From the sequence record PV833354.1: a stretch of DNA of 39,488 bases. The stretch is one strand, 5' to 3'. The stretch is from Escherichia phage vB_Eco_ZCEC02. A model generated the notes under the pieces. The model was given only the letters and a program-made list of their open reading frames with translations, did no database searches and was not told the origin of the DNA. Of the stretch, positions 31,131-33,986 are shown piece by piece. The position numbers were made by a program, and so were the translations under genes. Position 1 is the stretch's first letter. Each line of letters starts with the position of its first letter.

Positions 31131-33986
31131 ATGTCCACTATTACACAATTCCCTTCAGGAAACACCCAGTACAGGATTGAGTTCGACTACCTAGCCAGAA
31201 CGTTTGTTGTTGTTACGCTGGTGAATAGATCTAACCCTACCCTGAACCGTGTACTGGAAGTTGGTCGAGACTACCGATTCCTTAGTCCAACGATTATTGA
31301 GATGTTGGTCGACCAATCAGGTTTCGACATCGTTCGTATTCACCGTCAGACTGGAACTGACTTAGTGGTAGACTTCAGGAATGGCTCAGTGTTGACAGCT
31401 AGTGACCTGACCAATTCAGAGCTTCAGGCTATCCATATTGCAGAAGAAGGTCGAGACCAAACGGTTGACTTAGCGAAGGAATATGCCGATGCTGCTGGTA
31501 GCTCTGCTGGCAAAGCTAAGGATAGCGAGAACGAAGCACGAAGAATCGCTGAGAGTCTCAAGGCATCTGGTCAAATTGGCTATATTACCCGTCGCTCCTT
31601 CGAGAAAGGCTTCAACGTTATAACATGGAACGAGGTACTGCTATGGGAAGAGGATGGTGAGTATTACCGCTGGGATGGTACGCTTCCAAAGAACGTTCCT
31701 GCTGGTTCAACTCCTGAAACTTCCGGTGGGATTGGATTAGGTGCGTGGGTTAGTGTTGGTGATGCGTCATTGCGCGCCGATATTGCAAAACCAACCGGAA
31801 CAAATTTAATCGGCACAAAAAACGGGGAAACACTGTCTACAGTCCTTAGCAGCCGTTGGGCTAATTCGGGCGCAGATAAAAAAGAAATTCGTTTTGACCT
31901 GCCATTACTATTCCCAGATTACGATGCTATTCTGGCGGCACACTCTGACTGGACGTTTATTTATCCGGGGTCATTCTGTATCGGGGATGATGGCAAAATC
32001 TATATTGCATACGGCCCGAGTAATAATGCAGCGACGGAACGTTTCGTTGTAGTTTACTCAGGAGAAGGTGAATACTTAGGGTATATCCAGACTAATAATG
32101 GAGGCACCGGGGTAAATGGTTCTGCGGTATCCGAGGGGATTATCGTAACCAATTACTATGGTTCACTTAAGTTATTCCTTGGATCCTACGATGGTAACTT
32201 AGCTGAGTTTGATATCTCAGCAGTGTCCTACGGCACCGCGATTAGCTATACAGCGTTACACCAAGTGGGTCTGTATAACCAGTTCTCCTTCCATAATGGA
32301 ATGTGGGCAGTTGAACAGGCCATCCCAGCGTTGGGCACTAACCGTCAACGTAATGTTATTGCGTACTTCAACTCCGCATTTGCATTAACTGGTTTCACGG
32401 AATTTTCTCCGTATGACGCTGGATACATCACGGCAAATACTACTGATTACGGGTCACTTCAAACTAAGCGACAAGCAATCTGTTTAGCTCCGGGTGTTCT
32501 GATCATGGCATTTGGTGGTGTTTACATCACTGGAACAACTGTAGAAGCACCTACTAATTATCAGGGGGTAAAAGCGTTTAGCACCGATGGGCACAAAATG
32601 GTAGAGGCAGTAATACCCCCTACTGATTTTATTAGTGTTTTGGATGCTAAAGGGTTAATGACCTCTCGTATAGAGAATGAGGGTGTTTGCTATTCAAATG
32701 GTGAGGTGTTCACCTTATGGATCTATAACAACCGAACCGCCTCGAATGCGTATACGCATGGGATCCTAATTACCAAAGAGTACTCCAACTCCCCAGACTT
32801 GGATTTTTCTGCGGTGACAACGGTATCTCCGGGTTACGATACCATTCGGATGGCTTCTGGGGTTTATCCACGAATCCTCGCGGGCGACGTACTCTATAAC
32901 CCTCTGACCGGCAGTGCCATGACTTCAATGTCAGCAGTATTGGACTTTATGCGGCTGTCTGGGCAGAAGGAAGTTACTATCTATACGTCAAGCACCGGTC
33001 TTACAGATCTGGATGGAGTTGCCTACCCAATTGGGATAGAGCTTCATATCAGCAACCTGAATAACCTGAGCTTCTCTATAGATCAGACTGGGCCAATTAC
33101 CCGTAAGACTGTGCGCGTTACTTATGACACTTCCGGTTATACCGTAATTACTGGGGCTATCGGTTTAGAGACTTATCGCTTAACCCTGAATAATACTGAC
33201 TCTGGTGCATTAACCCAAGGTCGAATTGCAGCTAGGGCTTTCGGTAATAAAACTTTAACCGAATCAGAACAGATTCTTGTCCTCGATCAACAAAGTTCCG
33301 CATCTGCACATTCTCTTATCTTAGGTGGTGGATCGTCGGTATTTAAGAGTGCTACGTCTATTAGTTTTGCTACTAATCCGTCGCCAGAAACCGTAGGTGG
33401 CACTATTCGATGGCGTATAGATAATACATCTCTACGTCCATATACAGATAATGCTTACAATTTAGGCAACCCAGCATTACGTGTGGCTCAAGTCTTCGCA
33501 GCGATTGGTACTATTAATACGTCCGACTCCCGTGAAAAAACTGACCCGTTTGAAATCTCGGATGATATCCTTGATGCCTGGGGCGACGTGCAGATAATCA
33601 CGTACAAGTGGTTATCTTCTATTGCGGCTAAAGGTGAAGATTCTGCTCGTTGGCATTTCGGGGTAATTGCCCAGCAAGTTCGTGATGCCTTCATAAAGCA
33701 TGGTTTGGATGGTACTACCTTCGGTCTGCTTTGCTATGACGAGTGGGAAGATGAATATGAGCCTGAGTTCGTTGATGAGGTTATCACTGTTAATATTGAT
33801 GGTGTCGATACCGAAGTTACGCGTCAAGTGGAAACCGGTAATACCCTACTTACTAGAGCTGCCGGTAATCGCTGGGGCATTCGTCCCGATCAGTGTTTCT
33901 GGTTGGAGGCCGCTTATCAGCGACGTCGCTGCGACAGGATTGAAACACGACTGGATAAACTTGAAGGTTGTGGAGGTAGAGGCTAA
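31131..33986 (+). CDS. 17: tail fibre/tailspike (951 aa): T7-type N-terminal adaptor, unknown central domain, C-terminal S74-type intramolecular chaperone
   Basis: N-terminus matches T7 gp17 (EFDYLARTFVVVTL, YRF, LVDF.NGS.L.A.DL, HIAEE.RD); central region AT-rich with atypical codons; C-terminal SDSREK...GVIAQQV resembles the peptidase S74 chaperone signature. Confidence 0.92.
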   Translation: MSTITQFPSGNTQYRIEFDYLARTFVVVTLVNRSNPTLNRVLEVGRDYRFLSPTIIEMLVDQSGFDIVRIHRQTGTDLVVDFRNGSVLTASDLTNSELQAIHIAEEGRDQTVDLAKEYADAAGSSAGKAKDSENEARRIAESLKASGQIGYITRRSFEKGFNVITWNEVLLWEEDGEYYRWDGTLPKNVPAGSTPETSGGIGLGAWVSVGDASLRADIAKPTGTNLIGTKNGETLSTVLSSRWANSGADKKEIRFDLPLLFPDYDAILAAHSDWTFIYPGSFCIGDDGKIYIAYGPSNNAATERFVVVYSGEGEYLGYIQTNNGGTGVNGSAVSEGIIVTNYYGSLKLFLGSYDGNLAEFDISAVSYGTAISYTALHQVGLYNQFSFHNGMWAVEQAIPALGTNRQRNVIAYFNSAFALTGFTEFSPYDAGYITANTTDYGSLQTKRQAICLAPGVLIMAFGGVYITGTTVEAPTNYQGVKAFSTDGHKMVEAVIPPTDFISVLDAKGLMTSRIENEGVCYSNGEVFTLWIYNNRTASNAYTHGILITKEYSNSPDLDFSAVTTVSPGYDTIRMASGVYPRILAGDVLYNPLTGSAMTSMSAVLDFMRLSGQKEVTIYTSSTGLTDLDGVAYPIGIELHISNLNNLSFSIDQTGPITRKTVRVTYDTSGYTVITGAIGLETYRLTLNNTDSGALTQGRIAARAFGNKTLTESEQILVLDQQSSASAHSLILGGGSSVFKSATSISFATNPSPETVGGTIRWRIDNTSLRPYTDNAYNLGNPALRVAQVFAAIGTINTSDSREKTDPFEISDDILDAWGDVQIITYKWLSSIAAKGEDSARWHFGVIAQQVRDAFIKHGLDGTTFGLLCYDEWEDEYEPEFVDEVITVNIDGVDTEVTRQVETGNTLLTRAAGNRWGIRPDQCFWLEAAYQRRRCDRIETRLDKLEGCGGRG

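Follow-up and report, generated by a model that had tools for sequence, protein, structure and literature searches.

A recombinant tailspike of Escherichia phage vB_Eco_ZCEC02 that joins a Kayfunavirus adaptor to a circulating cassette with a predicted five-bladed propeller

The tailspike gene of Escherichia phage vB_Eco_ZCEC02 (sequence record PV833354.1) begins like that of a T7-type phage and continues as something else, which raises the question of where the remainder of the gene came from and what it does for the phage. The window, by which we mean the whole stretch of 39,488 nucleotides that was analyzed, shares 94-96% identity over its first 25 kb with Kayfunavirus genomes, such as HC13 and EcoIv1_Emlis, whose spikes are different. 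Kayfunavirus is a genus of K1F-like Studiervirinae in the T7 family. The gene in question, gp17 (31131..33986, + strand), encodes 951 residues and matches the tail spike and tail fibre families of PHROG with E values down to 6e-89. We consider it probable that gp17 is the single, recombinant tailspike of this Kayfunavirus, composed of the backbone adaptor and a circulating cassette with a self-cleaving chaperone and with propellers that would recognize a host surface glycan. The comparisons described below establish the domain composition of the protein, its recombinant origin with the breakpoints, the propeller fold at the level of a model, and the conservation of a Ser-Lys dyad.

The recombinant origin is evident from the changes in homology along the gene. 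Most other Kayfunavirus genomes match gp17 only from gene nucleotide (nt) 1 to about 640, and over nt 1-640 the nucleotide identity with K1F-like phages is 93-97%. From nt 517 to 2814 the gene is approximately 91% identical to the spikes of the 47-kb siphophages HC6, 6947, HC8A, ZCEC08, and ST1UNAM and of PBM-2/3, and the EK8 spike shares 86% identity with it between nt 742 and 2798; PBM-2/3 (Gamaleyavirus) and EK8 (Cbunavirus) represent the two genera of Schitoviridae that were compared. Over its whole length, gp17 is 95-97% identical in nucleotide sequence in four other Kayfunavirus isolates, ST1749, ST0223, vB_EcoP-U8, and LI10P1. In pairwise BLAST comparisons, homology with the backbone genomes HC13 and vB_EcoP_F stops at 31766-31769 and restarts at 33963, and donor-type homology covers 31647-33944. 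An earlier note on this DNA, made from the sequence alone, had placed a switch at 31770, a coordinate that genome comparison proves to be exact. Its proposal of a T7 backbone with a horizontally acquired receptor-binding module is borne out by the homology breakpoints and by the identities of the individual domains.

Both crossovers can be located closely. The 5' crossover zone is a stretch of 27 nt, GCGTGGGTTAGTGTTGGTGATGCGTCA (31743..31769, + strand), which encodes AWVSVGDAS, is identical in the window, backbone HC13, and donor-type HC6 in a three-way alignment, and maps to the end of the Tail_spike_N domain. The first cassette-specific segment is the neck or linker (residues 214-249; 31770..31877, + strand). 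It is 94% identical to the corresponding segments of HC6 and PBM-3, and neither the three-way alignment nor the per-domain comparison revealed any similarity to HC13. Neck, propeller, subdomain, stalk, and S74 domain are each 89-96% identical to those of HC6, ZCEC08, and PBM-3; relative to EK8, just 39% of the neck is identical as compared with 84-93% for the propeller through the S74 domain. The adaptor, with amino acid identities of 91-92% to Kayfunavirus U8 and ST0223, is unrelated to the adaptors of the other carriers of the cassette (21-26% for the donor-type spikes of HC6, ZCEC08, PBM-3, and EK8). As judged by these sequence comparisons, the cassette is horizontally acquired. At the 3' junction (33945..33986, + strand), donor homology ends at 33944 and the backbone resumes at 33963. 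The window protein ends in KLEGCGGRG* and the spike of siphophage HC6 in KLEAK*. The DNA of the last six codons (GCGGRG, followed by the stop; 33963-33986) is intergenic in HC13, where it lies about 54 nt past the stop of an unrelated gp17, and the 3' crossover has therefore lengthened the reading frame into intergenic DNA of the backbone.

The propeller module alone, when used in a tblastn search, was found in 48 of 50,697 cultured-phage records. Of these, 13 are near-identical copies from phages of E. coli and Salmonella, and five are Kayfunavirus copies that have diverged or are frameshifted (35-46%; EcoIv39_Milel, EcoIv41_Bia, ECG4, LS3). A further 27 are Staphylococcus phage records, mostly from ~140-kb myophages like vB_SscM-1 and some from Mammaliicoccus hosts, and the module also occurs in Erwinia phage UCB24 and Weissella phage phiYS61. 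In ECG4 (MN218775.2) and LS3 (MN518893.2) the cassette is present at 91.5% nucleotide identity in three pieces, but the translated protein (P0009) is only 43-58% identical and its alignment is garbled, a pattern that suggests frameshifts due to sequencing errors or a pseudogene. The feature annotated under this match is named 'peptidoglycan lytic exotransglycosylase', apparently because the annotation is displaced. A protein of 777 residues (P0002) from a contig of 102,674 bp has the cassette at 92-93% identity behind an N-terminal anchor of only ~70 residues, suggesting a fifth kind of carrier, either a large phage or another element. At megablast sensitivity, no match to the cassette was found in 5,426 complete E. 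coli genomes, and it is therefore not seen there as a prophage gene.

The N-terminal part of gp17 belongs to the backbone. The virion-attachment adaptor (residues 1-150; 31131..31580, + strand) corresponds to the N-terminal domain of T7 gp17: Pfam Phage_T7_tail (PF03906) matches residues 10-116 with 57.7 bits (cut-off 25.2), the solved T7 gp17 structure 7boz matches residues 6-117 with an E value of 1.8e-14, and 8dsp and 8e4g match over the same residues. The alignment of the first 150 or so residues with the T7 attachment domain had been noticed earlier and is confirmed by these matches. Kayfunavirus spike 9vvr (9vvr_A) is almost identical to gp17 over residues 1-226. The earlier note had overlooked a second conserved N-terminal domain, in which the crossover is located. 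This is the Tail_spike_N junction domain (PF18668, TSP1/Gp66-type; residues 154-211; 31590..31763, + strand), which scores 71.3 bits against a cut-off of 25, is common to backbone-type and donor-type spikes, and sits between the anchor and the receptor-binding part. Its amino acid identity to siphophage and Schitoviridae spikes is 30-62%, with the values for HC6 and PBM-3 at 60-62%, and TSP3/TSP4 of CBA120 and other spikes match gp17 over residues 150-240.

The central 500 residues gave no Pfam match up to an E value of 10 and a single PHROG match, to family 22693 (E 1e-28). Word-index searches for homologues returned only 9 and 15 proteins, the family being too diverged for that index. When 1.84 billion cluster representatives were scanned exhaustively with HMMER, 243 related clusters emerged, defined at 50% identity, that are 25-38% identical to gp17 and all align over approximately residues 250-670. 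AlphaFold2 applied to residues 214-800 with an alignment of eight sequences gave a predicted local distance difference test score (pLDDT) of 40.8; for residues 240-690 with an alignment of 34 sequences, the pLDDT was 89.9 and the predicted template modelling score (pTM) 0.88. The latter model comprises twenty strands arranged as five four-stranded blades, followed by an alpha/beta subdomain, and its top fold matches are five-bladed propellers. The central region, for which a beta-helix or a beta-propeller had been considered, is accordingly modelled as a five-bladed propeller of the phi11 Gp45 kind (residues 250-560; 31878..32810, + strand), with near-invariant residues Glu335, Arg407, Lys446, Gln448, Glu515, Glu517, Glu550, and Asp558. 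The alpha/beta subdomain (residues 561-675; 32811..33155, + strand) has a pLDDT of ~90, contains the motifs NPxTG and FYTS, and always follows the propeller in the family. A profile of the 34 family sequences found nothing significant among the sequences of the PDB (best E value 0.089), and the relationship to phi11 is therefore visible by fold comparison alone. Metagenomic relatives join the propeller module to many anchors (T7 tail, BppU_N, tail-collar, and Mtd_N), and 17 of 58 have an S74 domain. In the literature we found neither a characterized receptor-binding fold of the propeller type for phages of Gram-negative bacteria nor a functional characterization of the propeller-plus-subdomain family, which is without a Pfam model.

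The stalk that precedes the cleavage site (residues 676-797; 33156..33521, + strand) can be aligned, over the 70-120 residues in front of the chaperone, with the corresponding stalks in solved spikes and fibres, and these alignments extend over gp17 residues 725-939 for 9vvr, 730-878 for 7y5s, 740-904 for T5 pb1 (4uw8), and 760-945 for the K1F endosialidase endoNF (3gw6). We infer its trimeric fold, because the monomeric AlphaFold2 model is poor in this region. The last 154 of the 951 residues form a Peptidase_S74 intramolecular chaperone (residues 798-951; 33522..33983, + strand); PF13884 matches residues 798-859 with 54.6 bits (cut-off 22), and the E values for 3gw6, which is the endoNF chaperone construct, and for 3gud are 2.2e-38 and 4e-21. 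Residue-by-residue alignment places Ser798 opposite an Ala of the 3gw6 chain and Lys803 opposite its Lys. We take this Ala to be the engineered S911A and this Lys to be Lys916, the endoNF dyad presumably being Ser911/Lys916. The sequence S-D-x-x-x-K is kept in homologues P0001-P0007, and cleavage between Thr797 and Ser798 by a Ser798-Lys803 dyad is predicted to free a 17.6-kDa fragment. The Pfam score, the match to 3gw6, and the aligned dyad uphold the earlier assignment of an S74 chaperone with a Ser-Lys dyad to the C terminus, and the motif GVIAQQV that had been cited for it is present at residue 844. The C-terminal piece had been described as the last 155 residues, starting with SDSREK and of about 17 kDa. 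The start is correct, but as SDSREK begins at residue 798, the piece is 154 residues long with a mass of 17.6 kDa.

The base composition of the locus is less sharply divided than its homology. The GC content of 31770-33986 is 0.457 as compared with 0.500 for the whole window, and all of the lowest-GC stretches of 2217 nt begin within 31251-31851, so that in the sliding-window analysis proposed earlier the cassette does sit at the GC minimum of the window (0.456). GC content at third codon positions (GC3) is 0.408 in the cassette and 0.557 in 21 reference genes (Fisher p 6e-15). An abrupt switch of codon usage at 31770, with AAA, TTT, ATT, and TTA becoming frequent, had been described. Three of these codons are indeed enriched in the cassette relative to the reference genes, namely AAA (13 of 20 Lys codons versus 125 of 583; p 5e-5), TTT (13 of 30 Phe codons versus 60 of 320; p 0.004), and TTA (18 of 57 Leu codons versus 62 of 706; p 4e-6), but ATT is not (p 0.56). 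The GC3 of gp17 codons 1-213 is already low (0.437) and does not differ from that of the cassette (p 0.48), and composition alone therefore resolves no abrupt step at 31770. A synonymous-usage score drops around codon 200. The atypical usage was said to be maintained for about 2 kb; that of TTT and TTA is back to typical in the S74 part. Donor-type GC is likewise low, with flanks of 0.44-0.45 in PBM-3 and HC6 and 43% for the whole of PBM-3. The unrelated gp17 genes of HC13 (L005 5013-7193; GC 0.47) and vB_EcoP_F (L004 646-3840; 0.456) also lie under their flanks (0.50-0.51), and low GC seems to characterize the entire spike locus in Kayfunavirus and not only this cassette.

These compositional data are what favors an explanation in which the gene evolved in place and the shift reflects an AT-bias of tailspike genes or the amino acid content of a beta-rich protein, because both the adaptor part of gp17 and the unrelated spike genes of HC13 and vB_EcoP_F share the low GC. 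Such an origin is nevertheless very unlikely, as it is already contradicted by the sharp homology breakpoints and by the 86-91% nucleotide identity to three other phage lineages; moreover, the nearest backbones carry different spikes, the synonymous-codon tests were conditioned on the amino acid, and a common cassette pool accounts better for the AT-bias of spike genes. Still less credible is the identification of gp17 as a K1F-type endosialidase (endo-N-acetylneuraminidase), which is how GenBank labels its homologues in vB_EcoP-U8, PBM-2/3, ZCEC08, and ST1UNAM. The real homology to endoNF is limited to the adaptor and to residues 760-945, comprising the end of the stalk and the chaperone, and the homologues bear the name because of the shared chaperone only. 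At both the DNA and the protein level, the resemblance to K1F-like spikes breaks off at residue 213 and returns only in the S74 domain, and the lack of Pfam matches in the central 500 residues extends to the sialidase family PF12217. Even a loose pattern finds no Asp-box in gp17, whereas it finds two in a K1F-like endosialidase used as a control, and the model has five blades (20 strands) instead of six, with no sialidase among the top fold matches. The view that the central domain has no Asp-box motifs and that gp17 is not a K1F-type endosialidase, taken in the earlier note, is thus sustained. The central region could also be imagined to be merely an elongated T7-like fibre shaft, but this fits the T7-like N terminus only. 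T7 gp17 matches no more than residues 6-117, and the confident AlphaFold2 model is a globular 20-strand propeller with an alpha/beta subdomain; the shaft is already refuted on these grounds and retains virtually no credence.

The function of the propeller is a more balanced question. In 144 representatives of the family, Glu515 is conserved in 100%, Glu517 and Gln448 in 99%, Lys446 in 98%, Glu335 in 92%, Arg407 in 85%, and Glu550 and Asp558 in 88%. The model puts the conserved polar residues where the innermost strands of blades 2, 4, and 5 begin and in a B-C loop of blade 3, and with the standard topology of propellers, they probably surround the opening of the central channel at the top face. 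In five-bladed propellers, this is where an active site or ligand site is usually located. In phi11 Gp45, the propeller cavity has been proposed as a site for N-acetylglucosamine (PMC4901313). We lean modestly toward a cavity that binds without cleaving a backbone, or that has an activity not yet definable. Only somewhat less probable is that the propeller is an enzyme (a depolymerase, an esterase, or a phosphodiesterase) whose action on capsule or O-antigen gives the short-tailed phage access to the outer membrane; one version of this proposal has it attacking teichoic-acid-like, phosphodiester-linked capsules such as E. coli K2. A catalytic role would suit charged residues that are invariant across very different hosts, a structural neighbourhood rich in enzymes, the requirement that a short-tailed phage get through capsule or O-antigen, and the halo reported for ST1749 on one host. 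On the other hand, the nearest solved relatives are regarded as binders, some family members have separate esterase or lyase domains, and residues of this type can equally form a structural network or a metal site. A broader and unlikely proposal is that residues 250-675 define a large enzyme family common to phages of Gram-positive and Gram-negative hosts, in which teichoic-acid-like polymers with phosphodiester linkages, such as staphylococcal wall teichoic acid and the K2-type capsule of extraintestinal pathogenic E. coli (ExPEC) ST131, would be cleaved or modified in an invariant Glu-x-Glu / Lys-x-Gln cavity. If true, this would constitute a new class of phage depolymerase, and the 'binding' propellers of the phi11 type would become candidates for catalysis. 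PHROG 22693 and RefSeq homologues carry the label 'glycerophosphoryl diester phosphodiesterase', which we rejected: the corresponding Pfam domain, GDPD (PF03009), is present in none of the gp17, vB_SscM-1, and phiYS61 proteins. Because the bearers of the name are without this domain, the name is unsupported and appears to have been propagated.

Host information for phages with closely related spikes is heterogeneous. The isolation host of LI10_P1 is reported as E. coli ST131 O25:H4 with a K2 capsule. PBM-3, which has two receptor-binding proteins (RBPs), is reported to grow on an O1:H7 ST95 strain of avian pathogenic E. coli (APEC). ST1749 and ST0223 are reported on Salmonella, and ST1749, whose gp17 is 97% identical, is reported to lyse Vibrio parahaemolyticus as well as Salmonella (PMC12123327). 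The same paper classes ST1749, a Kayfunavirus, as a Bruynoghevirus, and the cross-family host range that it describes is unusual for a T7-like phage.

Several points weigh against a recombinant tailspike that recognizes one host surface glycan through a conserved propeller cavity. The hosts of phages with a 95-98% identical module, as just described, are too varied for a strictly serotype-specific receptor, and no single candidate accounts for them either. The structure model is that of a monomer, and the stalk is modelled without confidence. Strand topology is the basis on which the invariant residues were assigned to the cavity. Furthermore, the clade of the window, from E. coli and Salmonella phages, has Gly280 and Gly285 (31968-31970 and 31983-31985) at positions that are Gln and Asp in 81-83% of the wider family; the blade-1 consensus of the wider family is YPQxFxID and the sequence in gp17 is YPGSFCIG. 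The cavity of gp17 may therefore differ from those of its relatives.

With these reservations, the reading of gp17 as a recombinant, glycan-recognizing tailspike can be set out as follows. The promoter, the adaptor (residues 1-150), and most of the Tail_spike_N domain are part of the Kayfunavirus backbone, and six trimers would dock onto the tail through the adaptor, as homology suggests by analogy with T7. The part from ~31770 to 33962 is a 2.2-kb cassette in circulation among virulent phages of enterobacteria that are not related to one another. As the sequence comparison shows, it entered by homologous recombination in the conserved stretch at the end of Tail_spike_N together with a second crossover at the 3' end of the gene. 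The S74 domain would drive trimerization of the stalk and then remove itself at Thr797/Ser798, leaving a mature subunit of 86 kDa. The three propellers of the trimer would recognize a host surface glycan in the central cavity of the top face, which would be lined by Glu515, Glu517, Lys446, Gln448, and Glu335.

Comparison with characterized systems shows which parts of this arrangement are shared. K1F endoNF (3gvj/3gw6) and other Kayfunavirus tailspikes (9vvr) have a near-identical adaptor and Tail_spike_N region. EndoNF also has the same order of parts (adaptor, propeller, stalk, and S74 chaperone) and a homologous chaperone with a Ser-Lys dyad. The endoNF propeller, unlike that of gp17, is a GH58 sialidase of six blades with Asp-boxes and a nested lectin barrel, and there is no sequence similarity between the two propellers. 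According to the model, the five-bladed 'platform' propeller fold would be shared with phi11 Gp45 (5efv), the 80alpha RBP (6v8i), and the Brochothrix NF5 RBP (9m7x). The identity with phi11 Gp45 in the structural alignment is 12%, and the 34-sequence profile misses 5efv among PDB sequences at E values up to 10; common ancestry of the two propellers is plausible. RBPs of the phi11 type have a helical stem, two 'tower' domains, and no S74 domain, are located on siphophage baseplates, and bind wall teichoic acid, whereas gp17 has a T7 adaptor and Tail_spike_N at its N terminus and a single alpha/beta subdomain, stalk, and S74 domain after the propeller.

The closest relatives outside the enterobacterial phages are the tail fibre of Twortvirinae (vB_SscM-1 gp113; L009 2166-4988) and gp26 of Weissella phage phiYS61 (L010 2138-4117), which belong to the sequence family of residues 250-675 with 24-31% identity. 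In tblastn searches with the module, the E values for Staphylococcus/Mammaliicoccus Twortvirinae and phiYS61 range from 1e-14 to 1e-42, and among predicted viral structures, the vB_SscM-1 tail fibre superposes on the propeller and subdomain with a template modelling (TM) score of 0.84 over 443 columns. Both proteins differ from gp17 in having other anchors and no S74 domain. The S74 domain and the preceding stalk resemble those of T5 pb1 (4uw8; E 2e-16, residues 740-904) and the chaperone of the GA-1/phi29-type neck appendage (3gud, residues 798-938), but the receptor-binding parts of these proteins are unrelated to that of gp17. Tail_spike_N is shared with Gamaleyavirus G7C (gp63.1/gp66) and with Kuttervirus CBA120 (TSP1-4), for which 5w6h, 5w6f, and 4oj5 match residues 150-240. 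The characterized receptor-binding domains of G7C and CBA120 are beta-helix glycosidases or an SGNH esterase and not propellers, whereas Gamaleyavirus PBM-2/3 carry the gp17 cassette itself. The mechanism of this mosaicism is not new, since these genera are known to exchange receptor-binding domains, and genes almost identical to gp17 have already been deposited.

The surroundings of the gene are those of a T7-like genome. According to the list of open reading frames (ORFs) and the synteny with HC13 and vB_EcoP_F, the order is gp16, gp17, holin, small terminase, Rz, and large terminase, so that gp17 occupies the gene-17 slot after gp16 and before the holin and terminase genes. It lies downstream of a promoter core of the T7-type phage RNA polymerase, ATCACTATAGGA (31070..31081, + strand), situated in backbone DNA 50 nt upstream of the gp17 start. 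With ATCACTATAGGA/G as the core and up to two mismatches, the window contains 13 matches, 12 of them on the + strand, as compared with 3.1 expected, and none of 100 shuffles reached 13; the + strand matches include those at 704, 4025, 5681, 6657, 14895, 17734, 18722, 23401, 31070, and 36930. Scans for sigma-70 promoters and intrinsic terminators across gp17 gave counts at or under the expectation from shuffles. Three short ORFs, 33700-34056 (+), 33488-33694 (-), and 33612-33827 (-), of 118, 68, and 71 residues, overlap with the region that codes for S74, in frames other than that of gp17; they probably arose by chance in AT-richer DNA.

Receptor-binding cassettes determine which strains a therapeutic phage can kill. 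The cassette of gp17 moves nearly unchanged among four lineages of phages whose hosts are ExPEC, APEC, and Salmonella, and it is mislabelled as an endosialidase in public records. Knowledge of its receptor would add a specificity module for the engineering of phages and tailocins, and the mapped crossovers, at the end of Tail_spike_N and at the 3' end of the gene, show where swaps are tolerated. What most merits attention, together with the propeller family, is that a capsule resembling teichoic acid may be linked to a fold that otherwise serves against teichoic acids.

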